Shown piece by piece: positions 16,092-49,263 of a DNA stretch of 64,000 nt. The position numbers and the translations under genes were made by a program. The notes below the pieces were generated by a model. That model had not been told where the DNA came from. It did not search any database and worked only from the letters and a program-made list of their open reading frames with translations. Positions within the stretch are counted from its first letter, which is position 1. Every line of letters starts with the position of its first letter. Source of the DNA: Desulfobacterales bacterium (GTDB lineage Bacteria; Desulfobacterota; Desulfobacteria; Desulfobacterales; UBA5616); assembly GCA_046483495.1 (NCBI GenBank), contig JAWODC010000001.1:64001-128000 (forward strand). Direction: 5' to 3'.

Positions 16092-16107
16092 CCTGACCGA
16101 TTGTCAA
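16092..16107 (-). promoter_or_regulatory. Putative TetR autoregulatory operator (CCTGACCGATTGTC) overlapping a TTGACA -35 box
   Basis: Minus strand TTGACA-ATCGGTCAGG; nearly identical to the 15261 element. Confidence 0.55.
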
Positions 16108-16314
16108 GTTGAAAAATATCTATAACTTATTGTTTTCGTCCATTGAAATCCGAAAGATTGCTTAGGGTCGAGCCCAACAACATTTTACCGCAGGAAAATA
16201 CCATATGGTTTGAGAATATAAATCTCCATGTAAAAGCTGAAACGGGATATGCCCATTTTCGGAACGGGCGCCAAGGATCCGATCGAAGGCATATGAAGAT
16301 GGCAAAAACAATAA

Positions 16315-22701: not shown

Positions 22702-24630
22702 TCAAACCAGGCAGCCGATTTCAAAACCTTCGGATATGGCTTGGGCAATCAGACCCGTGGATTTGCAGGATCCGATTATATAAATCTCCCATCCTGAATC
22801 AGAATATTCTTTCGGAATCTTATTCTCCTTCATGCCCGCGGCCAATACCACGGTGTCTGCATCCAGCGATATCTTGTTTTTTTCCTTATCCAGTATGGTT
22901 ACAGCATCGTCGCCGATTGCAAAAACCCTGCTCAATGTCATGATTTTCATTTTGTTTTTCATTCTTGAAAGGTTGCCCCAGCGCGATGTTATACCGGCAT
23001 CTTCCAAAACTGAATTCATCATCTCTACAACCGTTACGATATTACCCGAATCCGCTAAAAATTCGGCTGTTTCCATACCGACGAGACCGCCTCCGACCAC
23101 GATTACCTTTCCATGTGCCGACGTCTTTCCCGTCAGGATATCTATGGCGGTAACCACGTGTTTTTTATCCACACCAGGAATGTCGGGTATCAATTGTGAA
23201 GATCCTTGAGCCAATATCACCGTATCCGGCGACAGTGGCCTGATCCTATCGACCGTCATTTCCTTTTTTAAATAAATTTTGACACCCAACTGTTTCAAAA
23301 CGCTTTCATAATAAGGCACGATATTCTTCAGTTCATTCTTATGCGGTGGAATACATGCGATGTTTACCATCCCCCCCAGTGAAACGGATTTTTCATAAAC
23401 CGACACGTCATGCCCTCTCAATGCAGCCACACGTGCCGCCTCCATACCCGCAGGGCCGGCACCTACCACGACGACCTTTTTTGTTTTAGAGGCGTTTTTG
23501 ATTAAATTTTCGCCCTCGCGACCCAGTTCCGCGTTTAACGCACAGACTACACCCTTCTTTTCTGTGCCACGAAATTCAATCATCATTCGGTCAAAGCAGT
23601 GGCAGCAGGCAATACATTTTCTAATAGATTCAGATCTTCCTGTCTTTGCCTTTAGAACGAACTCCGGGTCACACAATAACGGCCTGCCCAAACCGATAAG
23701 ATCGGCGTCCCCCCTTTCAATGATTTCCGCCGCCAGATACGGGTCATTTATTCTTCCTACAGCGGCGACGGGAACATCAACCGTTTTCTTTATTTCCCTT
23801 GCCAGATAAGAAAAAGCACCCCTGGATACGAACATCGGCAACATGGGACGAGACGATTCATGCCAACCCGCCCAGATGTGAAGGCGGTCGGCACCCGCTT
23901 TGATCAGCATAGGCGCAATAGTCTTTGAGTCATCAAGGGTTTTTCCGCCTTTCATGCCGTCTTCGGCATCAAATTTGACACATATATTAAAATCTGGACC
24001 GGTCAAGCATCGTGTTTCTTTTAAAATGTCGGTAATAAACCTTGACCTTTTCTGAATATTTCCGCCGTATTTATCCTCTCGCCTGTTTGTAAGGGGCGAA
24101 AGGAACTGGCTGATAAGGTACCCGGAGCATCCACAAAATTCTACACCGTCAAATCCCGCTTTTTGTGCACGACATGCCGCAGTGGCAAATGCTTCGACGA
24201 GTTCGTCGACCTCATCCGTCGTAAGCTCGCGGGGAATTTCTCCCGTGTATTTTGAAACAACGGCGGATGGCGCCACGGACTGATGGCCGAGTATTCTTGA
24301 AAAGGCATAACGCCCTACATGATTCAACTGGCCGACTACTTTAGAGCCGGCTTTCTGTACCGCCTTCACAAGCGGAGCCAATGTCTTTATGTCGTCATCG
24401 ATTTCGAGACGTGGTTCATGCGCTATTCCGGCGCGCCCGCTTCTATGGACACTTATTTCCGCGGTTGTTATAAGTCCGACATCCCCTTTGGCCCTGGCAA
24501 CAAGATAATCTTGAAGTCGGTCCATCCCGTACCCGGTACCCATCGGTGCCATAAAGAACCGGTTTTTCAGCGTTAGGTTTTTCATTTCCAGAGGTTCGAA
24601 AAGAACTTGGAGATTTTCTTTCTTATTCAT
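22702..24630 (-). CDS. 2,4-dienoyl-CoA reductase (FadH)-like flavo-Fe-S oxidoreductase
   Basis: QLNHVGRY, GCSGYLISQFLSP, GWHES, CIACCHC..C, GAGPAGMEAA; paralog of 13107-15029. Confidence 0.88.
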   Translation of the reverse strand: MNKKENLQVLFEPLEMKNLTLKNRFFMAPMGTGYGMDRLQDYLVARAKGDVGLITTAEISVHRSGRAGIAHEPRLEIDDDIKTLAPLVKAVQKAGSKVVGQLNHVGRYAFSRILGHQSVAPSAVVSKYTGEIPRELTTDEVDELVEAFATAACRAQKAGFDGVEFCGCSGYLISQFLSPLTNRREDKYGGNIQKRSRFITDILKETRCLTGPDFNICVKFDAEDGMKGGKTLDDSKTIAPMLIKAGADRLHIWAGWHESSRPMLPMFVSRGAFSYLAREIKKTVDVPVAAVGRINDPYLAAEIIERGDADLIGLGRPLLCDPEFVLKAKTGRSESIRKCIACCHCFDRMMIEFRGTEKKGVVCALNAELGREGENLIKNASKTKKVVVVGAGPAGMEAARVAALRGHDVSVYEKSVSLGGMVNIACIPPHKNELKNIVPYYESVLKQLGVKIYLKKEMTVDRIRPLSPDTVILAQGSSQLIPDIPGVDKKHVVTAIDILTGKTSAHGKVIVVGGGLVGMETAEFLADSGNIVTVVEMMNSVLEDAGITSRWGNLSRMKNKMKIMTLSRVFAIGDDAVTILDKEKNKISLDADTVVLAAGMKENKIPKEYSDSGWEIYIIGSCKSTGLIAQAISEGFEIGCLV

Positions 24631-24650: not shown

Positions 24651-26183
24651 TCACAATTTTTTGCCGCCATTTTTTTTTAAATGTCTTTTTAATATCTTCC
24701 CAAGCGCATTTCTCGGGAAAAATGACGGTTCAACGACTTCGATCGTTTCAATAGCTTTGTATTTTGCCAACTTTCGATTAGCCTCTTGTCTGATATCTTC
24801 TTTATCATCAGCTGCTTCATTTTTCAAAACAACAAACGCCTTCGGTATCTCACCCAGGCGATCATGAGGTATTCCGATTATGGCGGTTTCCACCACACGT
24901 GAATCCTCCAGGAGTATGCGTTCAAGTTCGGCCGGATACACATTGAACCCACCCCGGATTATCATGTCTTTTTTTCGATCGATGATATGCAAATTCCCGG
25001 CCCCGTCAATATATCCCATGTCACCGGTATCCAGCCATCCATTTCTTATTGCCGCCTGGGTTTCAGATGGGTTGTTCCAGTAATACATCATGGCCCGTTC
25101 GGTACCAATCTCAATTGCTCCCACCTCTTCGGAGTCAATTTCTTTTTCTCCATCTTTGGTGAGCCTTAACCTAATGTAAGGCAGTGGTTTGCCGACAGAA
25201 GTGCCCACAGCCGGCGTTTTGGGGTTTTCACATGCAGCGATTAGAGAAATTTCAGTCAATCCATAACAATGAATGATCCTGAAGTTATAGACCTCTTCAA
25301 ACCGGCTTCGCAACGAAGGGCCAAGGGGAGATCCTGCACAAATGCCGAAGCGAACGGAGGACAAATCAGACGCCGAACCAGAATCGTATATCATTTGATA
25401 AATGGTCGGCACACCCGCAAAAAACGTTGCTTTTTCTTTCTCCAGATTTTTGAGGAAAACCCTGATATCGAATTTTTCGAGAATAACGAGTTTTCCACCC
25501 ACAAGCAACGAAAGCCCCACATGAATTAAGTAAGCAACAAGCTGAAAAAAAGGAAGGGCTGCAAGAAATACATCTTCACTGTTGAAACCGAGGTAATCCC
25601 TTATCCCGGAAAGGTGTCTTACTATGTTTTCATGCGAGTGGACCGCCCCTTTGGGAAATCCGGTAGTTCCCGAGGTATAAGCAATAACAGCAATATCTTC
25701 TGAATGAACATTTATATCCAGAGGTGGAATATCATCGAGGCAAATTTTTTCAAAAGAAAGAATGGCCGCGAAGGAATTTCTCTCATATGACAAAGCGTAG
25801 AATTGAGATGTTAGGTTCAAAGGTGCGCCGTCGTATAAAACGGAATCCAAATACGTTCGATTTGCCAACAGCACCTTTATTCCTGCATCCTTCAGAATAT
25901 AATTCACCTCGCTTTTGGTAAACATTACATTTATACTCACCGATATTAAACCCAGCTTCATTGCGGCGTAAAAGCATACGATAAATTCGGGGCAATTATG
26001 CATCAATATTCCAATTCGATCGCCCTTGTTTAATCCAATTTTTTGAAACCAGGCGGCAGCGCATTCGATTCTTCTCAGCAATTCCGAATAGCTGATATGA
26101 ACTCCATTGTAACTTATGGCGGTCTTATCGGGATAACACTCGGCAGATTCTTTTACCGTAGTATATAAATGTCTGTTTTTCAT
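24651..26183 (-). CDS. Acyl-CoA synthetase (AMP-forming)
   Basis: YTSGTTGFPKG, YGLTE, GWLDTGD, DRKKDMIIRGGFNVYP, PRNALGKI. Confidence 0.92.
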   Translation of the reverse strand: MKNRHLYTTVKESAECYPDKTAISYNGVHISYSELLRRIECAAAWFQKIGLNKGDRIGILMHNCPEFIVCFYAAMKLGLISVSINVMFTKSEVNYILKDAGIKVLLANRTYLDSVLYDGAPLNLTSQFYALSYERNSFAAILSFEKICLDDIPPLDINVHSEDIAVIAYTSGTTGFPKGAVHSHENIVRHLSGIRDYLGFNSEDVFLAALPFFQLVAYLIHVGLSLLVGGKLVILEKFDIRVFLKNLEKEKATFFAGVPTIYQMIYDSGSASDLSSVRFGICAGSPLGPSLRSRFEEVYNFRIIHCYGLTEISLIAACENPKTPAVGTSVGKPLPYIRLRLTKDGEKEIDSEEVGAIEIGTERAMMYYWNNPSETQAAIRNGWLDTGDMGYIDGAGNLHIIDRKKDMIIRGGFNVYPAELERILLEDSRVVETAIIGIPHDRLGEIPKAFVVLKNEAADDKEDIRQEANRKLAKYKAIETIEVVEPSFFPRNALGKILKRHLKKNGGKKL

Positions 26184-26273: not shown

Positions 26274-27065
26274 TTATTTCACGTTTTTAGTATCTCCCTT
26301 AAGAAATCTTTCAAAGGCCCCTTGCATAAACTTGGTCGCAAAAATTGCCGGCATGAACCTCTCGGCCTCTTGATAACCTTCAATTGCCTTACGGTTTAAT
26401 ATCTGTTTAATATATGTCTTGGAAACGGCACTTTTGGAACCAATTTTCTTTGCCAACTCCTCGCATTTGGGCATCAATTCATCATCTTCATAAACGTCGA
26501 TTACCATGCCTAACTTCTTGGCCTCTTCCGCGGGCACTTCCGAGGCGGACATGCAAAGATAGGCCACTACGTTTTTTCCATATTTTTCCAATCCGCGGGT
26601 AACCGCCCAGGCGGGAAGCGCGCCGTGATTTATCTCCTTCAGTGCAAATTTGGCGCTTTTGGAAGCAAAAACCATATCACAGCAGCCGGATATCTCCAAA
26701 CCAAAACCAAAGGCCGCGCCGTTAACGGCCGCTATAACCGGCGTTTCAGACAGTTCGATAGCCTTAAAAGGGATAAAACAGAGCTTTATGAAATCAAATC
26801 CCGCCTCTATTTTACCCACGCTTGCGAACTGCTCGACATCCGCTCCGGCGGAAAATACCGGAAAAGGCGTTCCCTTTTTGGGATGAGTGAACGTTTGACC
26901 AGTCAGTATAATACAGCCGACATTTTTATCATTGTCCAATTCGTTCACAGCAGTCCCGATTTCGCGAAACAGCTGGTCGTTGGCAGCATTGAATTTATCT
27001 GGACGATTGATGGTGATAATTGCGTAATTTTCTTTTTTTTCTACTTTGACGACTTCATATTCCAT
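26274..27065 (-). CDS. Enoyl-CoA hydratase/isomerase family protein
   Basis: NRPDKFNA, FSAGAD, AVNGAAFGFGLE, KEINHG. Confidence 0.88.
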   Translation of the reverse strand: MEYEVVKVEKKENYAIITINRPDKFNAANDQLFREIGTAVNELDNDKNVGCIILTGQTFTHPKKGTPFPVFSAGADVEQFASVGKIEAGFDFIKLCFIPFKAIELSETPVIAAVNGAAFGFGLEISGCCDMVFASKSAKFALKEINHGALPAWAVTRGLEKYGKNVVAYLCMSASEVPAEEAKKLGMVIDVYEDDELMPKCEELAKKIGSKSAVSKTYIKQILNRKAIEGYQEAERFMPAIFATKFMQGAFERFLKGDTKNVK

Positions 27066-27099: not shown

Positions 27100-28899
27100 T
27101 TAAACGGCGTCCCATTCTTTTTGAATGATGGCGGGAAGCTTTTGAGCCCTTTCTTTTCCGCTCATAAAATCAAGAAAGCGTATGCCCTGGGGATCTAAAG
27201 CCTTAATCAGTTCAACCTGCTGTAATGTCGGAGCGTCCGTCTCGGGACAATTGGCCGGAATTTCAACCCCGAACCCCGTGTTGTCAATTACATCCTTTTC
27301 GTTTACACCTTTATGAAGAGATCTTACAATCCACCTGCCGCGTTCAACCATTTCCATTACGCAAAGGTTTGTAATTACCATTACCGGTCCGGGTTTCAAG
27401 CCTTGGGCCTTCCGCTCTTCATCGGTAAAGTAGTACCGCGTACCTGTAATGTAATTGACCTTCGGAACAAAAACCTGCTTTGAATGTACAGCAAAATAGG
27501 CTACTGATTTTCTATGAAGTCCGAAAACAACCGGTGCTCCTGCCCCGCCGGGAAGTCTCAGCCCCCTGGGATTCCATTCCCCTGTCGGGTTCCCATCGGC
27601 GTCCCTGACCGGAAGGGCCAACCATGATATATTGATATCTCCATTAACGTCCATCTGGGCACTTGAAACCGCCTCGACATCTCCTTCGCCCCGATTGTGA
27701 AGCGCTTCAATACATTCCGTCATAGACCACAAGCCGGAACTGAATGCGGTGCATGCCATTTCAGATGTGTGAAATCCAAGTTTGAAAGGCAAAGGGTCTA
27801 CACCACTGTACCCGACTATAAAGGCATTCGGGGCATGGGTCAGTTTTGCCAGCATATAAGCCGCGTATGCCAATGGCGTAAAAGATCCCAGGACTATGGC
27901 ATCCTCATCCTCGATAACGGCGGCAATTGCGGCAAGCATCTGGTCCGCGGCATCGAATTGCTGGGCTTTTTCGATATCCAGTGATTCCGGGAAATCAATC
28001 CGATGAATCGTTTTTGAAAGCCTTTTCAGATTATCCTTCGCTTCCTGCCCACCGACCATTCCCCAGTATTCATCTTCTGAAGCGCCTATCATTTTGAGTG
28101 CGTATTCCTTGGCCGTCCTTGGATTCAATCCCTGCAGATCCTTCAGCATCTGAACCAAATGCTGGGGATAGTACGGTACACAACTACAGGGGCTAGCGCC
28201 CATTGGGCAATGAATCACAAGATCGATCTCATTTCGAAAAAGCTTCGTCGCGGATTTGTCCGCTCGTATCTCTTCTTCCGAAATAATTTCCTCGACTGTA
28301 GCGATCACCTTTTTAGCGGCCTTTGCCATGTCGATATCGGATCCGGATGTACCGAAGATCTGAACATTTCCGGATCGGTCCGAACGCTGCGCATGAATAA
28401 CAGCCACATCCGGCGAAATGGCCTCGATCGCCGTCAGTTCCTTTCCGGTGAATGGACATTTTACGGTTTTATACAGGTGCGGCGCCTCCTTGATGATGTC
28501 AGATCCCGTCGGTCCTTTAAATGCGGCAAAAGGCAGGCCAAGGCCGGCTGCTTCAAGTCCCTTGATCATGCTGCATCCCTCGATTTCGGTCAGCTTGATC
28601 AATCCTTTTTCCGCAACTCTGCGAAAGTTCGGCGGCAGGCCAAATGCTTCGAGACTTAAAAAACTGAAAATCAAATGATCAACGGCATCAGCGCCTATAA
28701 GCCATTCCATTTCCCATCCGCCGGTTATTGACATAACGGTGAGCCCATCGATTTTCTGTCTGATAATTTCACGAATAACGGCCATGGGTTTATTGCAGCT
28801 CCAGCCTCCACCGATGCCGACAAATGAACCGGGAGTAATAATTTTTCCGATATCCGATAATTCACCAATTTTTGATTTTAACTCAATTTTAGAGCTCAT
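27100..28899 (-). CDS. Fused CoA-transferase-like protein (GctAB/IpdAB-type alpha+beta)
   Basis: Alpha half GIGG....KPMA, GLEAAGLGLPF, CPFTG, PDVAVIHAQ.SD..GN; beta half LAKLTHAP, AQMD.NG.IN, RLPGGAG, VITNL. Start 28899 (AGGAGG spacing) or 28908. Confidence 0.8.
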   Translation of the reverse strand: MSSKIELKSKIGELSDIGKIITPGSFVGIGGGWSCNKPMAVIREIIRQKIDGLTVMSITGGWEMEWLIGADAVDHLIFSFLSLEAFGLPPNFRRVAEKGLIKLTEIEGCSMIKGLEAAGLGLPFAAFKGPTGSDIIKEAPHLYKTVKCPFTGKELTAIEAISPDVAVIHAQRSDRSGNVQIFGTSGSDIDMAKAAKKVIATVEEIISEEEIRADKSATKLFRNEIDLVIHCPMGASPCSCVPYYPQHLVQMLKDLQGLNPRTAKEYALKMIGASEDEYWGMVGGQEAKDNLKRLSKTIHRIDFPESLDIEKAQQFDAADQMLAAIAAVIEDEDAIVLGSFTPLAYAAYMLAKLTHAPNAFIVGYSGVDPLPFKLGFHTSEMACTAFSSGLWSMTECIEALHNRGEGDVEAVSSAQMDVNGDINISWLALPVRDADGNPTGEWNPRGLRLPGGAGAPVVFGLHRKSVAYFAVHSKQVFVPKVNYITGTRYYFTDEERKAQGLKPGPVMVITNLCVMEMVERGRWIVRSLHKGVNEKDVIDNTGFGVEIPANCPETDAPTLQQVELIKALDPQGIRFLDFMSGKERAQKLPAIIQKEWDAV

Positions 28900-28950
28900 G
28901 GGATTCATCCTCCTGTTCTGCTAATCATTCTGCGATTTGGCTCTTCCATC

Positions 28951-30267
28951 TTATTCAATCCAATATTCCTCTTTAGGAAGATTCTGCTTGTCATAGCGCT
29001 TTACCAGATATCCAAAGAATCTTTCTACAGCCGCCATGTTGACGTTTATACCGTTTTCTCTGAGAGCGGCGACGATGTGATCGAGCCTCGGCGGACACCC
29101 TGGAATTTCAACTACTTCATTTAATCTTTTGTCATCCTTGTATGTATCAATTGGGCACTTCCCAAGCAAAAAGGTCTTTTTTGCAGTGCCGGACGGTGTT
29201 GCCCCCTTTGCCAACAATTCGATATCGTCGAAGGGCTTCCCTTCGTTTGCAGATAAAATCAACAACATGGTTGGTGGGAAAATATAGGTGCAACCTGTAC
29301 AGACCCCTATAGGAAAAGGCAAATCAAATCCTTCCAGGTTTTGTTTTATAAATGAGATGGGTTTTCTGCCGTCCTCACTGTAGGGTGTATCGATTTTTAT
29401 TTGGTGAACATGTTCTTCAAGCTTCAGGCCTTTGATCTGTATATCTTTGACATCCGTACTGCGGCCATGTATTTTGGAAAACTTCCTCAAGTGAAGTACA
29501 TCCGTAACGGGAACTCCCAGAAGACTGCTTCCAACCACATCAACCGAATACATGTCTTTGCCTGCTATGACAAGGTCTGCCCGATGAGCTGTCCCGGTAA
29601 ACATCGGCCCCGCCTCCAGCATGTAGGTTCCATCGATAATAGTGAGATTCGGGTAAAATCGTTCGGCTAAATGGAGGATGTATTCATCTACTGGGTGATC
29701 GGGGTTGTGGCAGGACTGCTTGCTTTTAACGCTCAGACTGCCTTTTAAATTTTTAAATCCAAGCGTCACGCGTGTCCCTTCATGCGTCTTTAAGGCAGGC
29801 AGATTGATGAGGTAATCGCATTCAAACATTGGTTGGGCAATTTTTAGTGTATGCGGACCCAGGGAAAGCTTTTGGTGCTTTTCAGTGTTGAAGTCCACCA
29901 GTTTTACACCATACTTTTTTTCAAAAGCATGATAATTGAGCCCGTCAAAAAGGTTTTGGGTTGTGGACCCGAAATCCTTGTTCTGTGCACATCCGTCACC
30001 AACCGTAATGTTTTTTACTCCTCTGTCCTTCAACAGCTTTACCACTTCCTCAACTACACTGCTCGTTGTAATGACTCCGTAAGGGGCATATGGAAATTTG
30101 TCCAACCATACAACCAGATTCGGCTTGACCAAAACCGACATGTTGGGGTCCAAATCGTTAAATCCATCGCATAACTCGAGCGCCTCTCGTACCCCCTGTT
30201 TGTTCTCTCCTAAAGAGCAGAGGGCAACAGGTGCATCTCTGTCCTGATTATGAATACCAGGCTTCAT
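28951..30267 (-). CDS. DUF362 domain Fe-S protein
   Basis: VLVKPN, LPALKTH, LGFKNLKG, IIDG, D..SVD plus C-terminal CTGC, GKC and GCPP; start refined to 30267. Confidence 0.8.
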   Translation of the reverse strand: MKPGIHNQDRDAPVALCSLGENKQGVREALELCDGFNDLDPNMSVLVKPNLVVWLDKFPYAPYGVITTSSVVEEVVKLLKDRGVKNITVGDGCAQNKDFGSTTQNLFDGLNYHAFEKKYGVKLVDFNTEKHQKLSLGPHTLKIAQPMFECDYLINLPALKTHEGTRVTLGFKNLKGSLSVKSKQSCHNPDHPVDEYILHLAERFYPNLTIIDGTYMLEAGPMFTGTAHRADLVIAGKDMYSVDVVGSSLLGVPVTDVLHLRKFSKIHGRSTDVKDIQIKGLKLEEHVHQIKIDTPYSEDGRKPISFIKQNLEGFDLPFPIGVCTGCTYIFPPTMLLILSANEGKPFDDIELLAKGATPSGTAKKTFLLGKCPIDTYKDDKRLNEVVEIPGCPPRLDHIVAALRENGINVNMAAVERFFGYLVKRYDKQNLPKEEYWIE

Positions 30268-30410
30268 AGTAATCCTCCTTTTCATATAATTACTGATTTG
30301 AAATCAGTCGCATTACCGAATACACCCACCCCATGCCAAGCTCATGAGTATTTGAGAAAATTTAGGATGATATAAAGATTAATATTTGCTGCACGACCGA
30401 TGAAAGGTAT

Positions 30411-31211
30411 TTATTTGCCGCGGAATTCCGGCTTTCTCTTCTCAAGAAAGGCCGTTGTGCCTTCTTTCGCATCATGTGTTTCGAAGGACTGGCAGAATTG
30501 GTTCAACTCCTTGTCGATTCCTTGATAAAGATCATGATCGTTTACCAGATTAACGCATTGTTTGGCCCATCTCACCATTAAACCACTCTTGGAGATGATC
30601 TTTTCGGCTAATCCGTAAACCTTTTGATCAAGTTCTTCCGGTTTAACAACCTCATTTACAAGTCCCAGTTCGAGGGCCTTTTGCGCGTTTATCGGGCCTC
30701 CGGTGAGAATCATTTCCATTGCTTTGCCTTTGCCAACAATTCTTGGAAGTCTCTGGCTTGCACCACTTCCGGTTATGATGCCCAGGTTGATTTCCGGCTG
30801 AGAAAAAGTAGCTCTTTCCGTACAAATCCTCATATCGCAGCCCAGAGCAATTTCGCTCCCCATACCCCATGCCATACCGTCAACCGCGGCTATTACGGGT
30901 TGATTAAGATTTTCAAGTAGCGTGGGACTGAAATGGTCCTTCAGCAGTTCTTTGACCTTTTGCCATCCACTTTCCCTTGCAATGTTACTCCATTTTTTCA
31001 GCATTTTAATATCTGCTCCCGCCATGAAATTGTCACCGCTTCCTTTTATTACGACCACTCGCAAAGAGTCATCACCTGCAATTTCGGAAAGGAGCTCCTT
31101 CAAGTCCGAAGACATGATTTCACTGTAAGCATTGAATACTTCGGGTCTGTTTAAAATAATAGTACCGATACCCTCCATTTTCTTGTAAAGAATGGTTCGA
31201 AATTCCATCAT
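30411..31211 (-). CDS. Enoyl-CoA hydratase
   Basis: NRPEVFNA, FMAGAD, GMGSEIALGCD, QPEINLG, FLEKRKPEF. Confidence 0.92.
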   Translation of the reverse strand: MMEFRTILYKKMEGIGTIILNRPEVFNAYSEIMSSDLKELLSEIAGDDSLRVVVIKGSGDNFMAGADIKMLKKWSNIARESGWQKVKELLKDHFSPTLLENLNQPVIAAVDGMAWGMGSEIALGCDMRICTERATFSQPEINLGIITGSGASQRLPRIVGKGKAMEMILTGGPINAQKALELGLVNEVVKPEELDQKVYGLAEKIISKSGLMVRWAKQCVNLVNDHDLYQGIDKELNQFCQSFETHDAKEGTTAFLEKRKPEFRGK

Positions 31212-31298: not shown

Positions 31299-31706
31299 TT
31301 ACTGGAGGGCGACTTTTCCGATATTTTGCTTTATGTATTCAGCAACCTTTTCCCCCGGCAATCCGGGGGGAAAAACTTTGTGTATGCCTTTGCTTTCAAG
31401 TTCGCGGAAATCGCCGAGTGGAATAACGCCACCCATTATAAGCATGACATCCGTTTTTCCATATTTCTTCAACATCGGGACCAGATCTTCAGCTAATAGT
31501 AAATGGCCGCTGGTCATAATACTCAATCCAATAACATTTACATCTTCTTGAATCGCGGCATTAACAATATCGTCTGCTGTTCCAAACCTAAAGTATATGA
31601 CCTCCATTCCAGCGTCCCTGAGTTCTCTGGCAATAAGTTTCGTTCCTCTCCCGTGCACGTCAATTTTCTTTTTTGCCAAAAGTACCTTTATTTTCGGATC
31701 AACCAT
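31299..31706 (-). CDS. Cobalamin-binding small subunit of an acyl-CoA mutase
   Basis: DVHGRG (DxHxxG), LRDAGMEVIY, IGLS..GH, GGVIP, VFPPG; start refined to 31706. Confidence 0.92.
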   Translation of the reverse strand: MVDPKIKVLLAKKKIDVHGRGTKLIARELRDAGMEVIYFRFGTADDIVNAAIQEDVNVIGLSIMTSGHLLLAEDLVPMLKKYGKTDVMLIMGGVIPLGDFRELESKGIHKVFPPGLPGEKVAEYIKQNIGKVALQ

Positions 31707-31781
31707 ATTGTTTTCCTCATCTTGATTTCGGGTTGGGTTATTAGCACTTTTAGTGTCAAGCAACTAACTTTCTTTGATAAT

Positions 31782-33446
31782 TTAGCCGCATACGTACCAA
31801 CCAAAGGCTTCTCGCATGGGCACCATCATTTCTCCATTAGTCGCTCCTTTCCTTGCAGCTTCGACAAGGGCGGGCATTAGATCCGATTTTCCTTCTTTAA
31901 ACTCGTAACAGGTTTTTTTCAAATATTCAAGTGCCTTATCAACTTCCTGCTGGCTTCTTTTAGCCTTAAAGGCTTTTAGTTTCTCAATGGCTTTCCTTTC
32001 GATGTCCAAATCAACCTTGAATTGTTTATAGTCCATTTCTTCATCGGTCGTATACATATTAACGCCAACCACCGGCCAATCTCCTCTTTTGACGGCTTGC
32101 TTTCTTTTGTAAGACATATCGTCAATCGCTCTTTTAATCCAGCCGGCTTCCAGTCCCTTTAAATACCCGCCTTTGGATTCTAAATCGTCGTATATTTCCC
32201 AGGCTTCTTTTTCCATTGCATCTGTCAAAGACTCAACATAATATGACCCACCTAGTGGGTCTGCTACATTTCTAAGGCCGCTTTCCCACATCATAATCTG
32301 TTGCGTACGAATAGCCGTGCGATGTGAGATTTCGGTGGGGATGCTTATCGCCTCATCAAATGAGCAAGAATGGATGGACTGAACCCCCCCCATAATCGCC
32401 GCCATAACCTGCATTGTAATTCGAGCAGTATTATTAAGCGGCTGCTGCGCAGTGAGTACATTCCCGCTGGTGTGTATATGAACCCTGGCAAATCTGCTTT
32501 GCGGCTTTTCGCATCCTGCATTTTTTGTTATTTTTGCCCACATTCTTCTGTGAGCACGCAGTTTTGCAACTTCTTCGAAAAAGTCATTCTGAATACCTAC
32601 CTGAAAGCCAAGGCGACCAATAAAGCTGTCAGGGGAAAGGCCCGCCTTTTTTCCCGCTTCAATGACCGATTTTCCCCAGGAAAGTCCATAAGCAAGTTCT
32701 TGGAGCGGCGTAGCCCCTGCTTCCGACAGACCATACATGAATATGTTTGTCGTGTTCCAGGCAGGAATATTTTTTGTGCAAAATTTAATCAAATCTCCCA
32801 TTAAGGCATACCCCCATCCGGGTTCCCAGGACGGAATATCCTGTACCGCGACGCGCGGATACCAATTCATTGAATTGCCATGCAAATTGCTGATCGGTTC
32901 ACCTCGTCGTTCGGCGGCTGCACACGCAAGCGCCAGTGCAGGCAGGCAATTGTCTCCGGTTATGAAGGAAAAATTTGTTGTATTGAGATCCCAACCTCTC
33001 ATGATTTCATCGTAATCTTCTACAGAAGACAAAACACACCCACACTGTCCCACATTACCGCGAGCCTCAGGATGATCCGAATCGATGCCGTACATACAAG
33101 GGATGTCAAAAACTATGTTAAAAACCTTGTGACCGAAATATCCTTCCATGCCATCGGCCACCATTTTCTCCATTTTGGCCCTTGTTTCTTCACACGTTCC
33201 ATATCCGAAAACCATCTGCTGCATCCAGGGCGTCAATGCATATCCATCGGGGTAGAGCCCTCTCGTATATGGATATACCCCGGGCATTTCATATAAACTC
33301 AGGTTTTCAGTATCTTCCGGCGTGTAAACCGTTTTAATTTCTATTCCGGATAAATTCTTCCTTGGTTGTATTTTATCAACATACCTCGCCCTCAATTTTT
33401 CCCATGTTTCTTTTACTTCTTTATAACCCATATCGTCTTTATTCAT
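31782..33446 (-). CDS. B12-dependent acyl-CoA mutase large subunit (methylmalonyl-CoA mutase family), divergent specificity residues
   Basis: SGIEIKTVYTP, PGVYPYTRG, FD.P...G.DSD, EAGAT..QELAY, FFEEVAKLRA.RRMWA, LTAQQPLNN, ADPLGGSYYVE, VVGVN. Confidence 0.92.
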   Translation of the reverse strand: MNKDDMGYKEVKETWEKLRARYVDKIQPRKNLSGIEIKTVYTPEDTENLSLYEMPGVYPYTRGLYPDGYALTPWMQQMVFGYGTCEETRAKMEKMVADGMEGYFGHKVFNIVFDIPCMYGIDSDHPEARGNVGQCGCVLSSVEDYDEIMRGWDLNTTNFSFITGDNCLPALALACAAAERRGEPISNLHGNSMNWYPRVAVQDIPSWEPGWGYALMGDLIKFCTKNIPAWNTTNIFMYGLSEAGATPLQELAYGLSWGKSVIEAGKKAGLSPDSFIGRLGFQVGIQNDFFEEVAKLRAHRRMWAKITKNAGCEKPQSRFARVHIHTSGNVLTAQQPLNNTARITMQVMAAIMGGVQSIHSCSFDEAISIPTEISHRTAIRTQQIMMWESGLRNVADPLGGSYYVESLTDAMEKEAWEIYDDLESKGGYLKGLEAGWIKRAIDDMSYKRKQAVKRGDWPVVGVNMYTTDEEMDYKQFKVDLDIERKAIEKLKAFKAKRSQQEVDKALEYLKKTCYEFKEGKSDLMPALVEAARKGATNGEMMVPMREAFGWYVCG

Positions 33447-33668: not shown

Positions 33669-33711
33669 ACCGACCGGTTGGTATAATTGCTGATATTTTC
33701 TAACTTGTCAA
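33669..33711 (-). promoter_or_regulatory. Promoter of the mutase operon with operator ACCGACCGGTTGGT (33669-33682)
   Basis: Minus strand TTGACA (33706-33711), 17 bp, AATTAT, immediately followed by the palindrome. Confidence 0.65.
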
Positions 33712-34029: not shown

Positions 34030-34364
34030 CAGCATGTTTGATTTTTTTTCATTTTATCCGTTGAATTTCTTTAAAAATTATACTAATAATTCTTTTTTTA
34101 AAATTCATTGATTTTGTTTTCTGCGGCAAACAGTTCGGTTGCCGCTATAACAAGGCAATTTGCAGGCAATTTCCCAGCAGATAGGGTGTAAGTTCTCAAA
34201 GAAATATATGGGTTTCGTCTACAAGCAGATTTTCTCCCAAAAAAATTTTGTATTGCAGGTGCCCTGTCTGATCTTGGTTAATAATAATCAAAATCCAAAA
34301 TCAATCATCCAACTGTATTGTGGCCGACCGGATAAACGATACGTTTACTTAAAAAGGAGGTGAA

Positions 34365-34931
34365 ATGGCTTCAAGTTATGATAGAATAATTAAAGCGACC
34401 ATTGAGCTTATGAATAAAAAAGGTTACCATGGAACCTCAATACAAATGATCGCAGATAAAGCGAAAATTTCTAAGAGCACAATTATTCATCATTTTAACA
34501 ACAAAGAGGGAATACTTCTTGCGATCTTGGGTAAACATGTGCCTGATGCCGGAAAGCGACTTAAGGAAATAGTGGATAATAATGGAATGAAAGGAAGAGA
34601 TAAGCTAAAATTGTTTATGCAAAGTCATCTCGGCCAAATTGATAATTATGGGGATATCATGAATTTAAATCTGAGAGAAACGAGGTATTTTTCTTCTAAA
34701 AATAAAAAAATTTATAAAGAAATTCAACATGAATACGAGGACTTACTTAGAAAAATTGTGCTTCAAATTCAAAAGGAAGAAAAGCATCTGCTGCATGGTT
34801 TGGATCCTAAAATCATTACACTGGCGCTGTTGGGCATGTTAAATTCTATTCCACAATGGTATAAAAAAAAGGGCAAATTAGGTATCGATGAAATTGCCGA
34901 TCAGATATATCGAATGGTGACGTTCACATAA
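34365..34931 (+). CDS. TetR/AcrR family regulator, paralog of 15423-16001
   Basis: YDRIIKA, GYHGTSIQMIADKAKISKSTIIHHFNNKEGIL, LRETRY, LLGMLN..WY; AGGAGG RBS. Confidence 0.92.
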   Translation: MASSYDRIIKATIELMNKKGYHGTSIQMIADKAKISKSTIIHHFNNKEGILLAILGKHVPDAGKRLKEIVDNNGMKGRDKLKLFMQSHLGQIDNYGDIMNLNLRETRYFSSKNKKIYKEIQHEYEDLLRKIVLQIQKEEKHLLHGLDPKIITLALLGMLNSIPQWYKKKGKLGIDEIADQIYRMVTFT

Positions 34932-35310
34932 GAGGGTATTGCCGCGAAATATGCGACCAGAGGTTCGCTTGATTTTCGCCGTTCATTCCGCCTGATGGGT
35001 TGTGCGGGGATGGACAAAACCTAAAAAAAAATGACCCTTGCCGAACTCGTTTTCCAAAAAAGATCCAAACCCTGGAAAAGAAAGAAAACCTGTCAAACCA
35101 CTAAACCAGGATTCAATTACCCCTCCAAACAAATGCAGGGCAGACACCTTATAAAACCCAGGTGAAATTTTGCATTCAAACCTAATGGATATCATGGATA
35201 GATCACATCATGAACCATTCAGGCAAATGCGCTATTTGACGCATTATTATTATTGACCTTTTCAGGTTTTTCTATAATCTCTATATAATTAATTCGACAA
35301 GGAGCGAATT

Positions 35311-36426
35311 TTGAAGAAAACATCTTTTCTTATTTGCATTTCTTTGAGCTTGCTGGTTCTCTCGGTTCTCTCGTGCCTGAAAAAAGATGCCGATGAAACA
35401 TCGGTTCACCTTCCGTCGGTAGAACCCCTTCCGCCTGAAGTGGTCGTCTCTTCGGTAAAGCGGGGACCGATATATAAGACGTATACATCCATTGGAACCG
35501 TTACGCCCAAAGATTCCTCACGTATTTTTCCAAAAGTGGGTGGTCGCATATCGAAGGTATGTGTCGAAGAGGGCCATATCGTAAACAAGGGGGATCTGCT
35601 CATGCAGATCGACGCCTTCGATTACACGCGGGCCGTCGAAAATGCAACCGCCCTCAAAAATCAGGCGGCATCCAATCTTGAAAAAGCGAAGCGGGATTTT
35701 TCCCGAATTGAAAAACTTTACGCCGACAAGGCCGTACCGAAAAAAAACCTGCAGGATATGAAAACCGCCTTGGATTTGGCGGTCTATGCCTACGATCAGG
35801 CGGCCGTTTCATTGAAAAAAGCCGTTGATGATTTCGGAGAATGCGGCGTCAGGGCCCCGATTTCAGGCATGGTGACAGCCAAGTTGGTGAACCCGGGAGA
35901 ATTGATCGGCCCCCAAACGATGGCATTTAAAATCATGCAGATGGAGACGGTCGAGGTTGAAGTCGATCTGCCCGAAGAAGCTTTTGGCAATCTGTCGCTC
36001 GGCAACAAAGGATTTATCTCGTTTGACGCCGTTCCGGATAAATCCGTGACGGGAACGATCACCAAGATTCATCCCACAATCGATCCCGTCAGTCGAACCG
36101 TTAAAATCACCCTTTCCATAGACAATCCAAACCTGCTTATCCGGTCCGGCATGACGGCCCGCACCCGAATCGTACAGACGGCCGAGCAGGATGCGCTGTA
36201 TGCGGCCAGGGCGGCATTGATCCCGGTTGAAGACCGTTACATCGCATATCGGGTGCAGTCCGGACGGGTGGAAAGAATACTTTTGGATGTGGGCATTATC
36301 GGAGATGATGTATTCGAAATCAAAAACGGCGCCGTCGAAAACGATCTTTTCGTAGTCAGGGGGGTTACCGGACTGCGCAACGGCATGAAAGTCAAAATCG
36401 TTCACCAGGATACGGTCGAAAGATAA
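35311..36426 (+). CDS. RND efflux periplasmic adaptor (MFP), lipoprotein
   Basis: Lipobox VLSC, GGRI..V.VEEG..V.KGDLL, RAPISG.V, IDPVSRT, GMTA. Confidence 0.92.
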   Translation: MKKTSFLICISLSLLVLSVLSCLKKDADETSVHLPSVEPLPPEVVVSSVKRGPIYKTYTSIGTVTPKDSSRIFPKVGGRISKVCVEEGHIVNKGDLLMQIDAFDYTRAVENATALKNQAASNLEKAKRDFSRIEKLYADKAVPKKNLQDMKTALDLAVYAYDQAAVSLKKAVDDFGECGVRAPISGMVTAKLVNPGELIGPQTMAFKIMQMETVEVEVDLPEEAFGNLSLGNKGFISFDAVPDKSVTGTITKIHPTIDPVSRTVKITLSIDNPNLLIRSGMTARTRIVQTAEQDALYAARAALIPVEDRYIAYRVQSGRVERILLDVGIIGDDVFEIKNGAVENDLFVVRGVTGLRNGMKVKIVHQDTVER

Positions 36427-40467: not shown

Positions 40468-41505
40468 TCATGATTCCGATTTGCCCACCGCTTTTCCATT
40501 GACAATCTGATCCAGATACTCGGACATGCCGTAACCGATTCGGTCGTCGCATCGGTATTCGGTCATTCCCTCGGTGATTCGAGTCAACAACCTTTCTCCA
40601 TCGGGTGACTTCCGCCGGTTGCGGAGGGGGATCAGGGACAAGACACGCCCCTCGACGTCGTATTCCCGTTCATCGGTTTTAGCCCAAACGGTGAAGTCGG
40701 TTTGGTAATCATTTTCGTCCCAGTTTGTCGATAATCGCGCATCGGTGATGTTGATATACGTGTCATTTTTCAGCACCATTCCGCCGACACGCCGGCTTCC
40801 GTCAGCCTGGGTGATAATCGACACCATCATGGCAAAATCTTCTCCGAAATTCATGGGCAACCACCGGTACCAATAAATATTCTGCCAGTATCGCGGCCCC
40901 CACGAGTGGTCCCGCAGTCCCAGTCCATCGATTTCATGCCGCTGATCCCCCACCTGGAAAAATCCCTTGCCGCGGATATGCTGCTCGTAATGTCCACGGG
41001 CAAAGGCTTCCTCCGCTTTTTGTTGGATCGGAGTGCCGTCTTCGTTGACCGGCTCTCCGCCGAACATGGGTGACACGCCTGTATAATCGATCTCCACTCG
41101 GCACGGAACCATGGGGTTTTGCGTGAACGCTTTTTTGGGATCCGCCATGTCAAAGGGGTTTTTCAAAAGGCAGACCTTCCCGTCATAAACCACTTTAAGC
41201 CTTTTAAACGGCTCGATTATCTCGAAGGTCATACCGCCGGCATTGAATGCCTTATTATCCGAGATTTCCGGTCGCGCATACATAAAACCGATACTTTTGT
41301 CGGGCAAATAGATGCAGCACGACATTTCGGCATACCCCTCATTGGGCCGGTTTCCCAGTCGGAACCATCCCCCAAGCGGCTTTTCAGAGGATGGATTAAA
41401 CACATTGAAGTACATGCTTTCGTTAAAATTCACCGACGCTTCAAGCGGGTGCATATATTCATCCTCGGGTTCCAATCGAATTTTTACGGCTTTACCAGAA
41501 GCCAT
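40468..41505 (-). CDS. Conserved hypothetical protein (NESMYF...RDHSWGPR family, possibly tocopherol-cyclase/CrtC-like beta fold)
   Basis: 345 aa ORF with AGGAGG RBS; FNESMYF, HYEQ, GLRDHSWGPRYW, GYGMSEY. Confidence 0.7.
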   Translation of the reverse strand: MASGKAVKIRLEPEDEYMHPLEASVNFNESMYFNVFNPSSEKPLGGWFRLGNRPNEGYAEMSCCIYLPDKSIGFMYARPEISDNKAFNAGGMTFEIIEPFKRLKVVYDGKVCLLKNPFDMADPKKAFTQNPMVPCRVEIDYTGVSPMFGGEPVNEDGTPIQQKAEEAFARGHYEQHIRGKGFFQVGDQRHEIDGLGLRDHSWGPRYWQNIYWYRWLPMNFGEDFAMMVSIITQADGSRRVGGMVLKNDTYINITDARLSTNWDENDYQTDFTVWAKTDEREYDVEGRVLSLIPLRNRRKSPDGERLLTRITEGMTEYRCDDRIGYGMSEYLDQIVNGKAVGKSES

Positions 41506-41527
41506 GTTTCACCTCCTAAAGATGTGT

Positions 41528-42220
41528 CTACGCCGCCTCCGGACAGATCACCACCGATTCGATAAACCGGGTGACAAAATCCGCGTAGGCGTCAACCGAT
41601 ACATTTCTTCCGCGATATTTCCAGCGCTTCAAATACCAATCCTGAAGAACGGCCTTGATCAGGCTTGCCGTCAATACCGCATCATTTTCCAGAAACACGT
41701 TCTTGTGTTGTCCCTCGATAAGAATGTCGGAAAATATTTTTTCACTCGAAAGCTCCGATGCCATCGCCTTTTCCTGCTTGACGCGGGACATGTTTTTCGT
41801 TTCCATATAGGCAAAATAAAACCAGGGCTGCATGGATTCGCTTAAGTAAAGATGCAGCTTTATAGCGGTAACCAGTTTGCTTTTCGGATCCATATCCGAT
41901 TCCAATTCGGCTTCGAATATCCTTGCCATGATATTGCTGTGCTGGCGCTGGAGCATTTCGATCAATTCTTCTTTGCTTGAAAAGTAGGCATACAGGGCCC
42001 CCATACTCAAACCGCTTTCCCGGCTCAAATTGCGCATGCTCATCGCCTGGAAACCTTTTTTATTGCTGATCTTCAACGTCGCCTCAAAGATTTTTTCCAG
42101 GTTCTTTACAATCGTGTTTTCTTTCTTGACCCGAATGCGCTCGCGATTCTGTTCAAGAATTTCGAGGTACAGGTCGTCTTTGTAGCATGTGAATATTTTT
42201 CTGAATTCGGTGTAGTCCAT
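41528..42220 (-). CDS. TetR/AcrR family regulator
   Basis: KGFQAMSMRNLSRESGLSMGALYAYFSSKEEL HTH. Confidence 0.9.
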   Translation of the reverse strand: MDYTEFRKIFTCYKDDLYLEILEQNRERIRVKKENTIVKNLEKIFEATLKISNKKGFQAMSMRNLSRESGLSMGALYAYFSSKEELIEMLQRQHSNIMARIFEAELESDMDPKSKLVTAIKLHLYLSESMQPWFYFAYMETKNMSRVKQEKAMASELSSEKIFSDILIEGQHKNVFLENDAVLTASLIKAVLQDWYLKRWKYRGRNVSVDAYADFVTRFIESVVICPEAA

Positions 42221-42383
42221 AGTGTTCCAGTCGGCGGCCGTTCTCGCAGGGCCCGGCCCACCTCACAGGCTTTATCGATGTGATCACCTTTCAAACATTC
42301 CGGATGGACACCGATCGATGCCCATACGGAATTGGGGTCGATTGCGGTATTTGCTCTTTACATACATAAAAGCCGGTTACCGC

Positions 42384-43574
42384 TTACCGGTAGTTCCTCA
42401 AAATCCTTCGTGCAACTGCGGCCTTATGCGCCTCATCGGGACCGTCATAAATTCGTGAGGCCCGCTCATGCCGATACCAGTGCGAGAGAATCGTATCATC
42501 CGTCACTCCTAAAGCCCCATGAACCTGTATGGCCCGATCCACCACTTTCATCATCATGTTGGCCACATAGTACTTGATGAAAGCGATTTCCTTCCGTGCG
42601 TCCTTTACACCGACATTTTGGATCATCCATGCTGCATGGAGCACCATCAGCTTTGCCGCATGCACGTCGGCGGCGCATTCGGCGATCCACCCCTGGATAA
42701 TCTGCTTGTCGGCAAGCACCTGTCCGGGAGCTATAGTACGTTCAACCGCACGTCTGCACATCATGTCCAAGGCGCGGCCGGAAATACCGATCCATCGCAT
42801 GCAATGATGGATTCGACCCGGACCCAACCGCTTCTGGGCCAGAATGAATCCGTGTCCTTCCGGCCCCAACAGATTTGCCTGAGGAACCCTGCAATTCTGG
42901 TAAAGGATTTCCGCATGAGTGCCGTATCCCCGGCCCACATGGCCCATGACCGAAACATTTCTCACGAGGTTAAATCCAGGGGTGTCCGTTGGAACGATGA
43001 TCATGCTTGCACATTTATGGGGCTCCGCATCGGGATTGGTTACCGCCATCACAATGGCGAATGCCGAACCGTCAGCCGCCGAAGTAAACCACTTGTGGCC
43101 GTTGATGACATAATCGTCGCCGTCCTTTACCGCGGTGGTGTCCATCATGACGGGGTTGGATCCGGGCAGATCCACTTCCGTCATTGAAAAACAGCTGCGG
43201 ATTTCCCCTGCTACCAGGGGAACCAGCCACTTTTCCTTCTGCTCCGGGGTGGCGAATTCATGAAGAATTTCGATATTGCCGGCATCCGGGGCCTGGCAGC
43301 CGAAGACATACAATCCAAGCGGCGTTTTGGCGATAATTTCGAATACCAGCGCGCTTTCCATCAGTTCGAGCCCCATGCCGCCGACATCCTTGGGATGGAG
43401 CGGCGCCCATAATTCCATGTCCTTCACCATTTGCTGCTTTTGCTTCAGGACCTCCTCCAAACTCTCCGTACCATCTTTGAGGTACTGAGGCTCCAAGGGA
43501 ATCAGTTCCTTTTGAACGAATTCCTCCATCATGTCCAGCATGGTTTGTGTCTTTTCCGATATTTTAAAATCCAT
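42384..43574 (-). CDS. Acyl-CoA dehydrogenase (ACAD10/11-like subfamily)
   Basis: FGCQAPDAGNIE, CFSMTE..GSNP, RLGPGRIHHCMR, QVHGALG, IYDGPDE. Confidence 0.93.
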   Translation of the reverse strand: MDFKISEKTQTMLDMMEEFVQKELIPLEPQYLKDGTESLEEVLKQKQQMVKDMELWAPLHPKDVGGMGLELMESALVFEIIAKTPLGLYVFGCQAPDAGNIEILHEFATPEQKEKWLVPLVAGEIRSCFSMTEVDLPGSNPVMMDTTAVKDGDDYVINGHKWFTSAADGSAFAIVMAVTNPDAEPHKCASMIIVPTDTPGFNLVRNVSVMGHVGRGYGTHAEILYQNCRVPQANLLGPEGHGFILAQKRLGPGRIHHCMRWIGISGRALDMMCRRAVERTIAPGQVLADKQIIQGWIAECAADVHAAKLMVLHAAWMIQNVGVKDARKEIAFIKYYVANMMMKVVDRAIQVHGALGVTDDTILSHWYRHERASRIYDGPDEAHKAAVARRILRNYR

Positions 43575-43618
43575 AAAACCCCCTTTTTACACGTTGCGTC
43601 CAGATAGCTGGACATGTG

Positions 43619-44326: not shown

Positions 44327-44402
44327 TAAAAAAACAGTGAATGAGAAGCCCTGGATGAAGGTGAACGTGAATATGTGCGAATAGACACGAAAGACTAATA
44401 CT

Positions 44403-44488
44403 TTTTTACAGTCATTCAGTATCCTTGTCAATAGAAATAGAACGATCGCTCGTTTTTTCTTGACAACGCGACATCACTGAACTAGGAT
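44403..44488. promoter_or_regulatory. Back-to-back sigma70 promoters with an intervening palindrome AACGATCGCTCGTT (44441-44454)
   Basis: Plus strand TTGACA (44460)-17 bp-TAGGAT for the etf genes; minus strand TTGACA (44431-44426)-17 bp-TAAAAA for the phosphatase/ACAD/TetR genes. Confidence 0.6.
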
Positions 44489-47133: not shown

Positions 47134-47154
47134 AAAACCTCCGAAATACAATGG

Positions 47155-48006: not shown

Positions 48007-48081
48007 AGGACTACCCCCTGCTCCGATATATATTTGCCCGCTTCAGCGGCGGAACCAACATGCCGTCTGCCTGTCTTGCCC

Positions 48082-49239: not shown

Positions 49240-49263
49240 GCGTCAACTCCTTTTCAATTTTCT

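Follow-up and report, generated by a model that had tools for sequence, protein, structure and literature searches.

The mutase subunits and their altered residues

We analysed a 64,000-nucleotide stretch of a Desulfobacterales genome (hereafter the window; contig JAWODC010000001.1, positions 64,001–128,000), in which two minus-strand genes encode a split adenosylcobalamin (AdoCbl)-dependent mutase of the acyl-coenzyme A (acyl-CoA) type. The large, catalytic TIM-barrel subunit with its rebuilt pocket (P0001, 554 aa) occupies 31782..33446, its open reading frame running from 33446 to 31782, and the B12-binding small subunit (P0002, 135 aa) occupies 31299..31706. The large subunit matched PF01642 with an E-value of 8e-158, lay above the curated cut-offs of the MM_CoA_mutase TIM-barrel domain and TIGR00641, and fell below that of NF006944. 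Its AlphaFold model (predicted local distance difference test score, pLDDT, 76.5, with residues 48–75 below 50) matched the folds of methylmalonyl-CoA mutase (MCM) and 2-hydroxyisobutyryl-CoA mutase (HCM) at a template-modelling (TM) score of around 0.8, which places the protein in the mutase family. The small subunit matched PF02310 and lay above the TIGR00640 cut-off. Its KxxxDxHxxG base-off motif, present in the clade form LAKKKIDVHGRG with DxHxxG at 31644–31661, retains the equivalents of Lys604, Asp608, and His610 (K12, D16, and H18) as well as G21, with Gly in place of Asp611, and so contains the residue set described for B12 binding (PMC3205055; here and below, papers are cited for their available portions). 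The first-pass annotation, a reading of the DNA letters, had described the scaffold and the separate DxHxxG subunit as intact, and these matches bear it out.

The same annotation listed four altered motifs in the large subunit, all of which lie at the positions it gave: WMQQMVFGY at 33201–33227, GMEGYFGHKVFNIVFD at 33105–33152, GNSMNW at 32862–32879, and IFMYG at 32730–32744. Residues were mapped by alignment to the structures of HcmA (4r3u) and Propionibacterium shermanii MCM and to reference proteins encoded on named plasmids or in the same genome. This confirmed that the four sites it had singled out are all replaced (Tyr89 by Val79, Gln197 by Met193, Arg207 by Gln202, and His244 by Gly239) and revealed a 6-residue insertion relative to the reference mutases. 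Other changes had escaped the annotation. Positions that contact CoA or line the tunnel are altered too (Arg82 to Thr72 and Arg87 to Gln77), four Ser or Thr residues of the barrel have become Asn (Ser114 to Asn110, Ser162 to Asn158, Thr195 to Asn191, and Ser239 to Asn234), and further exchanges were found at Thr166 (Ile162), Phe287 (Gln282), Gln330 (His325), and Asn366 (Cys361). A new Arg198 stands at the position of Lys202/Glu203, with a one-residue ambiguity in the alignment. The equivalents of Tyr243, Glu247, Glu370, Asn236, Arg283, Arg326, His328, and Ser362 are retained. Among the replaced residues are Tyr89 and His244, which, like Lys604, Asp608, and His610, are catalytic in MCM (PMC3205055).

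These substitutions are strongly conserved. In the best 120 of 7968 database matches (65–100% identical), the 25 substituted positions matched the query in 99.5% of cases on average, compared with 69.4% over all positions, and none of 100,000 random position sets equalled this conservation; the MCM set Tyr89/Arg207/His244 was replaced by Val79, Gln202, and Gly239 in 119–120 of the 120 homologues. Furthermore, contigs from independent sequencing runs were identical to the window, letter for letter, over 32472–32713 and 32811–33237, so the motifs within these intervals are not assembly errors, just as their near-invariance means that they are not products of decay. Both decay and assembly artefact are thereby ruled out, in agreement with the expectation that the substitutions would be shared among orthologues. 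Four metatranscriptome assemblies, taken from two studies, also contained fragments of the genes; their depth was low, fragments from outside the operon were present too, and DNA carry-over is possible, so we did not use them as evidence.

The annotation had also proposed a non-carboxylated, bulky substrate, and this part was not upheld. Summed side-chain volumes, a crude proxy, gave 1462 Å3 over ten acyl-end positions, within the range of the references (MCM, 1510; HCM, 1454; IcmF, 1477), and 1268 over eleven tunnel positions, compared with 1177–1224 in the references. The sums lend no support to a larger or apolar pocket and suggest instead a narrower, more polar tunnel. The invariant residues gained are mostly polar (R198, Q202, D203, Q282, H325, and four Asn), and Arg198, together with the decarboxylase-like partner described below, makes a carboxylated substrate conceivable.

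Phylogenetic position and distribution

Loci from GTDB genomes numbered 79, of which 36 encoded proteins of 65–85% identity (clade A) and 43 encoded proteins of approximately 40% identity (clade B). The clade A set examined comprised 92 loci, including the window, drawn from GTDB and from 55 of 80 metagenome loci (25 sister-type loci were omitted), and 39 of the 92 were at least 15 kb long (hereafter long loci); their hosts are Desulfobacterota, Gammaproteobacteria, and Actinobacteria. In a FastTree phylogeny of 91 rows, with 34 near-full-length rows for clade A (three fragments omitted) and 43 for clade B, each clade had a support of 100. Both were placed with a Sphingobium plasmid protein on a branch apart from HcmA, Xaut_5021, Xaut_5043, BhbA, IcmF, and an ECM-like protein, to which the window mutase is 27–36% identical. 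We take the HCM, pivalyl-CoA mutase (PCM; Xaut_5043/5044), and ethylmalonyl-CoA mutase (ECM) labels of these references to be correct; BhbA of Sinorhizobium meliloti is an MCM (PMC6759758). The position outside the known classes that the first-pass annotation had suggested therefore holds for those compared here. In the protein of the Sphingobium sp. WTD-1 plasmid, a related mutase, His occupies the Tyr243 and Phe287 positions and Asn that of His244. Its operon (L086:4940-15820) holds AtuA, biotin carboxylase, and isovaleryl-CoA dehydrogenase genes and is a candidate pathway for isoprenoid or quaternary-carbon compounds; the strain is in culture.

Clades A and B share 13 pocket residues (Q77, V79, N110, N158, I162, N191, M193, W195, N234, F236, G239, Q282, and H325), whereas D67, T72, M78, G164, C167, R198, Q202, D203, and C361 are confined to clade A. 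A second tree of 152 rows, which used 133 of 149 further family representatives, recovered the two clades as sisters (support 97). Among those 133 representatives, His244 is missing in 73, and the four-Asn barrel occurs in only one, a clade B member. Clade A forms a single cluster among 1.84 billion 50% representatives (1101 bits; next cluster, 548). Pocket rewiring is common in the mutase family, which contains dozens of rewired and unstudied clades, clade A among them. This background bears on whether the enzyme, instead of shifting a thioester, isomerises a CoA ester by some other B12 radical route, such as the opening of a cyclopropane ring that stalls fatty-acid β-oxidation, or acts on a substrate not bound through CoA. 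Such chemistry would suit the loss of His244 and Gln197, which we take to be thioester-polarising residues, the replacement of Arg82, Arg87, and four tunnel Ser/Thr residues, and the dienoyl-CoA-reductase-like neighbours. It is nevertheless very improbable: His244 is missing so often in the family that its loss is not special, the Arg283, Arg326, His328, and Ser362 equivalents are retained, the clade B context (see below) implies an oxygenated product, and the literature search gave it no support.

Of the characterised systems, HcmAB (4r3u; orthologue on a Methylibium petroleiphilum plasmid) gave the top PDB sequence match (E 8e-95; TM 0.81); it has the same split architecture, and both proteins carry Gln in place of Arg207 and Asn in place of Ser239. 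However, identity to HcmA is 33%, the window mutase carries the 6-residue insertion and Val in place of Ile90, and its equivalents of Gln197, His244, Phe287, Gln330, Asn366, Arg82, and Arg87 are replaced; neither the combination of Ile90 with Gln197/His244 nor the grouping with HcmA that marks Hcm was found. MCM (P. shermanii MutB, human MMUT, and S. meliloti BhbA) shares the fold, the base-off B12 motif, Tyr243/Glu247/Glu370, part of the CoA site, and the dependence on MeaB, whereas the window mutase is split, lacks Tyr89, Arg207, and His244, and is 35.5% identical to BhbA. PCM and IcmF serve branched-acid catabolism, and PCM likewise has a rewired pocket. Both enzymes, which are 31% and 27% identical to the window mutase, respectively, retain His244 and Phe287 and lie on other branches. 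The window mutase has neither the Leu at Tyr89 nor the Gln at Tyr243 of PCM and does not group with Xaut_5043; of the IcmF residues (Phe at Tyr89, Gln at Arg207, and His244), it shares only the Gln, the comparison being with the IcmF of the same genome and 4xc6, not with stand-alone IcmA. The Tyr89, Arg207, and fused B12 domain of ECM are also lacking, as judged against the ECM-like protein of the genome (L004) rather than an authentic ECM. The benzylmalonyl-CoA mutase IaaGH and the hexylmalonyl-CoA mutase MatB/ActD are likewise split, each having an unusual substrate and a pathway of its own (PMC8360864, PMC5719088), and differ in gene context, which is the level at which they were compared. 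A Xanthobacter plasmid (L089) carries HCM- and PCM-type mutases at 11451–13139 and 34159–35838.

The genome that contains the window is 96.7% complete and encodes six mutases besides this one, seven in total, among them a canonical MCM, an IcmF, and the ECM-like protein. With these enzymes already present, and with the rare, patchy distribution and dedicated partners of clade A, it is very improbable that the window mutase converts a known mutase substrate (isobutyryl-, pivalyl-, or methylmalonyl-CoA) through a convergent pocket, even though PCM illustrates that a heavily altered pocket can serve a small substrate and our trees were built without IcmA, RcmA, IaaG, MatB, and authentic ECM. Three other split mutases of the genome (L002:8479-10164, L003:8275-9876, and L005:4478-6355) also have non-canonical pockets and occupy separate long branches. 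When 201 genomes of the order were surveyed, both the clade A mutase and its Gct-like partner turned up solely in the same two genomes, the second of which is also counted among the clade A loci, and both are absent from a 96%-complete genome of the same genus. The mutase–partner module is rare and probably mobile. A literature search found no paper on clade A; its coverage fell short of most subscription journals and supplements, whose mutase trees could include the clade.

The operon, cofactor supply, and the Gct-like partner

As had been proposed, the mutase is the first gene of its operon, separated by 916 bp from a divergent TetR (TetR_C_24) regulator on the plus strand (34365..34931). 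The remaining operon genes lie on the minus strand. The small subunit is followed by the enoyl-CoA hydratase ECH5 (30411..31211), which has both catalytic Glu residues and occupies this place in Desulfobacterota and Gammaproteobacteria; a DUF362 Fe–S-like accessory protein (28951..30285), with five relatives in clade loci; and a fused GctA–GctB-like protein (27100..28908), probably an AibAB/IpdAB-type C–C-cleaving or non-covalent CoA enzyme. Next come the crotonase ECH8/40 (26274..27065), which is orthologous across three phyla and has an invariant E-x-N-H-G motif and both catalytic Glu; an AMP-forming acyl-CoA ligase, the probable activating enzyme (24651..26183); and, as the last gene, an Fe–S flavoenzyme of the FadH/BaiCD (Old Yellow Enzyme) type (22702..24630). 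The GC content at third codon positions (GC3) of the operon is 0.42–0.49, compared with 0.63–0.65 for the two genes to its right. A putative sigma-70-like promoter (TTGACA-17-AATTAT, 33711–33683, minus strand) overlaps a near-palindrome at 33669–33684, the two spanning 33669..33711. Neither exceeds chance: such promoter sites were as frequent in shuffled sequences, and the palindrome, which recurs at 18749 and 45763, had three matches against 0.8 expected, a count reached in 7 of 100 shuffles. It presumably resembles TetR/PaaR operators, yet it did not recur upstream of clade loci, and a TetR operator is not established.

No meaB gene is present on the contig of the window, as the first-pass annotation had noted for the window itself. 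As a feature of the system, however, this absence is ruled out by the presence of MeaB at 33 of the 39 long loci; the absence here is a local loss. The genome also encodes three MeaB homologues and a CobA/BtuR-type adenosyltransferase; no PduO-type adenosyltransferase was found in it, and no Rfam cobalamin riboswitch was matched across the window. We consider it extremely improbable that the large subunit is a paralogue that has decayed or lost its activity, or that it serves as a non-catalytic scaffold. It does lack several of the canonical catalytic residues, but the substituted positions are nearly invariant, and Tyr243, Glu247, Glu370, and the DxH motif are unaltered; the gene has a small subunit dedicated to it and, at 33 of the 39 long loci, a MeaB, and the operon holds no second mutase large subunit.

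Other parts of the window carry related genes. At 6689–17457 lie two more Old Yellow Enzyme flavoenzymes, an aldehyde:ferredoxin oxidoreductase, a phytoene-desaturase-like flavoprotein, a TetR, and an acyl-CoA dehydrogenase; relatives of the flavoenzyme at 13107 and of the dehydrogenase at 16315, 49–54% identical, lie next to clade A mutases elsewhere, and the pathway may therefore reach into this region. The segment at 40468–44431 encodes a DUF7064/7065 protein, a TetR, an LvaC/ACAD10-type dehydrogenase with the HCMR motif, and a histidine phosphatase, and in loci of Actinobacteria and Gammaproteobacteria DUF7064 also accompanies the clade A mutase, beside an APH kinase. The segment at 46357–50661 encodes a pair of BadF/BcrAD ATPases and a pair of HGD-D subunits, a set of the 2-hydroxyacyl-CoA dehydratase or class I reductase type, and non-orthologous BadF/BcrAD–HGD-D sets lie near the mutase of L034.

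The Gct-like partner is present at 38 of the 39 long loci, and an orthologue was found in 33 of the 34 clade genomes, three as partial matches; its gene is fused in Desulfobacterota and Gammaproteobacteria and split in Actinobacteria. Class I CoA-transferases require Glu54, which is absent from IpdAB (PMC5380842). In the partner, the GctB Glu54 site is Tyr or Phe in all 21 aligned sequences. The site of IpdA Glu105, a residue that we take to be catalytic and that was located from wild-type and mutant PDB chains, is Gly in both the window partner and the profile. From these sequences, the partner is probably not a classical CoA-transferase and may be a decarboxylase, a hydrolase, or a non-covalent transferase. 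It resembles AibAB (3-methylglutaconyl-CoA decarboxylase) and IpdAB (ring hydrolase) in having the GctAB fold without the transferase glutamate, whereas identity to them is approximately 20–28% and neither AibB Cys56 nor IpdA Glu105 is kept; a downstream Glu is shared in the alignment, and in a weak model (pLDDT 62) the fold comes nearest to that of AibB. A mirror-tree comparison of mutase and partner over 43 loci gave a Spearman correlation of 0.51 from non-independent pairs, with shallow groups in agreement and Gammaproteobacteria placed differently. Arg198 and the AibAB-like partner are both confined to clade A and are not found in clade B. Since this clade-specific Arg co-occurs with a partner whose nearest fold is that of a glutaconyl-CoA-type decarboxylase, the substrate may carry a carboxylate.

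Clade-wide neighbours and the predicted reaction

The mutase lies among genes for CoA ligases, crotonases, thiolases, and dehydrogenases of acyl-CoA and hydroxyacyl-CoA, which makes an acyl-CoA substrate, as first proposed, very likely. Among the long loci, a short-chain dehydrogenase/reductase (SDR) was found at 31 (17 at ≥55% identity), ECH5 at 30, and ECH8/40 at 27 (≥55% identity), with four more ECH8/40 genes in extended flanks. Genes for β-keto acid cleavage enzymes (BKACE) recur beside some clade A mutases (L016:8289-9170, L038, L009, and L130).

Anaerobes process 4-hydroxyacyl-CoA through AbfD. An AbfD with all four Fe–S ligands adjoins the mutase in 13 of the 92 loci, in Desulfobacterota and Gammaproteobacteria, and these AbfDs stem from three separate lineages. 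APH kinases adjoin it in 16 of the 92 loci, and all named hosts of these are actinobacterial. One or the other occurs in 20 of the 39 long loci, both together in none, and neither in any of the 43 clade B loci; when the flanks of ten loci were extended by 20 kb on each side, AbfD or an APH12 kinase appeared in four, including L008 and L036, which had had neither. Dehydrogenases with the ACAD10/LvaC motif (HCMR in eight and HAMR in four, as defined in PMC12440821) occur in 12 of the 92 clade A loci, compared with none of the 43 clade B loci. A kinase and an ACAD10/LvaC-type dehydrogenase together process 4-hydroxyacyl-CoA (PMC12440821, PMC11342911). AbfD was rejected as an obligate partner, being present in only 19 of the 34 clade genomes and common without the mutase, and is kept as a candidate for one of two alternative downstream modules. 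The clade B cassette consists of thiolase (28 of 43), hydroxyacyl-CoA dehydrogenase (27), MeaB (25), and TetR (21); as thiolase and the dehydrogenase are its only metabolic enzymes, the clade B product should already carry a 3-oxygen. Clade B (L042–L085), widespread in marine Alphaproteobacteria, Acidimicrobiia, Nocardia, and Nocardioides, is the simplest system for the chemistry shared by A and B, and in L076 (14782–18192) a clade B mutase adjoins two tandem PCM-like large subunits.

The fold and the cofactor motif of the mutase are intact, its conservation is strong, its setting is that of CoA-ester β-oxidation, and an AibAB/IpdAB-type partner is near-obligate. Judged from the sequences, the window very probably encodes an active mutase acting on a new acyl-CoA substrate. 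As to the substrate class, we tentatively predict a catabolic conversion of branched β-functionalised acyl-CoA into linear γ-functionalised acyl-CoA. Members of this family act through Co–C homolysis, hydrogen abstraction by the adenosyl radical, and a 1,2-shift of the thioester carbonyl. The split AdoCbl-dependent enzyme, loaded by a MeaB encoded elsewhere in the genome, is expected to follow the same radical 1,2-thioester shift. It would interconvert R-CH(X)-C(R')(CH3)-CO-SCoA, with X (OH, oxo, or carboxyl) on C3, and a linear isomer with X on C4; example pairs are 3-hydroxyisobutyryl/4-hydroxybutyryl, hydroxypivalyl/4-hydroxy-3-methylbutyryl, and methylsuccinyl/glutaryl. Gln282 and/or His325 may polarise the thioester in place of His244, and the Asn-lined barrel may re-seat the pantetheine arm. 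The γ-functionalised product would pass to AbfD in anaerobes, or to an Lva/ACAD10-type kinase and dehydrogenase in actinobacteria, and to the AibAB-like enzyme, before crotonase, hydroxyacyl-CoA dehydrogenase, and thiolase take over; the mutase would thus lift a block to β-oxidation within a rare, mobile catabolic pathway. The substrate class, the direction, and the catalytic replacements are the parts of this scheme that we infer.

Several observations weigh against this γ-functionalised product. Neither AbfD nor APH lies within 10 kb in 19 of the 39 long loci, the window operon among them, and the LvaC-type gene of the window is 9 kb from the operon in a region of different GC3. AbfD occurs in 74 of the 201 genomes of the order and LvaC types in 14 of 18 actinobacteria, so both may merely cluster with lipid-catabolism genes. 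The clade loci are related and represent approximately five or six independent associations. In two clade A genomes (G004 and G022), neither AbfD nor an Lva-type gene was found with the queries used. AbfD doubles as a vinylacetyl-CoA isomerase. The roles of residues other than Tyr89, His244, Lys604, Asp608, and His610, as well as the P. shermanii numbers, are our assumptions. In addition, ring compounds are suggested by extended actinobacterial clusters, which encode KstD/ChcC-like ring desaturases, SnoaL proteins, and a thiamine pyrophosphate (TPP) enzyme, and the partner model (pLDDT 62) lies nearest to AibB, by a small margin over GctB and IpdB.

The ring-directed genes would be explained by a sharper form of the first-pass proposal, in which the acyl-CoA is bulky, alicyclic or terpenoid, and quaternary at its α-carbon (1-methylcycloalkane-carbonyl type). 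The mutase would shift the thioester off that carbon, crotonase and SDR would form a cyclic β-keto ester, and ring opening would fall to the Gct-like protein, by analogy with IpdAB. The set of crotonase, SDR, IpdAB-like protein, and thiolase resembles that of steroid ring C/D cleavage (PMC5380842), the KstD/ChcC-like flavoproteins, Old Yellow Enzymes, and SnoaL proteins of the extended clusters would find a place, and the changes of His244 to Gly and Tyr89 to Val free local space. We regard it as unlikely, because the IpdA Glu105 site is Gly, the net acyl-end volume is no larger than in HCM or IcmF, and the recruitment of AbfD/Lva and the minimal dehydrogenase–thiolase set of clade B are left unexplained. 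The AibB-like model would instead suit HCM-type chemistry on a new scaffold, in which a 2-hydroxy-2-methylacyl-CoA (possibly carboxylated, citramalyl type) becomes a 3-hydroxyacyl-CoA; loss of water would then give a glutaconyl-type ester for the AibAB-like partner to decarboxylate. A direct 3-hydroxyacyl product fits the clade B set of mutase, dehydrogenase, and thiolase, and the Gln and Asn shared with HcmA fit as well, but the separate branch, the low identity, and the mostly different pocket residues make this quite unlikely, and AbfD/Lva again go unexplained.

The branched-to-linear conversion that we prefer can be extended, more doubtfully, to clades A and B as a superclade of γ-functionalised acyl-CoA mutases. 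Clade A would convert 3-hydroxy-2-methylacyl-CoA (e.g., 3-hydroxyisobutyryl- or hydroxypivalyl-CoA) into 4-hydroxyacyl-CoA without His244, clade B would run in reverse, feeding 4-hydroxy- or 4-oxoacyl-CoA (levulinyl type) into thiolysis, and the partner would represent a third chemistry on the CoA-transferase fold. New in the present analysis are the near-obligate non-transferase partner, the exchange of Lva and AbfD modules, the contrast between clades A and B, and the family-wide background.

Few acyl-CoA mutase reactions are known. Database genomes annotate the clade A protein as "methylmalonyl-CoA mutase" (an ESM Atlas search returned generic names only), and metabolic maps that count it as such are probably wrong. 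Efforts towards bio-based methacrylate have looked for a 4-hydroxybutyryl/3-hydroxyisobutyryl-CoA mutase; a literature search on this activity and related names found no paper. The same cassette is present in aerobic actinobacteria that are available in culture (Thermobifida cellulosilytica, Sphaerisporangium, Microbispora, and Acrocarpospora), which makes genetics and metabolomics feasible. If the prediction is true, a mutase acting on esters of the 4-hydroxyacyl or glutaryl type would constitute a new carbon-skeleton rearrangement and reveal how catalysis works in the absence of His244.

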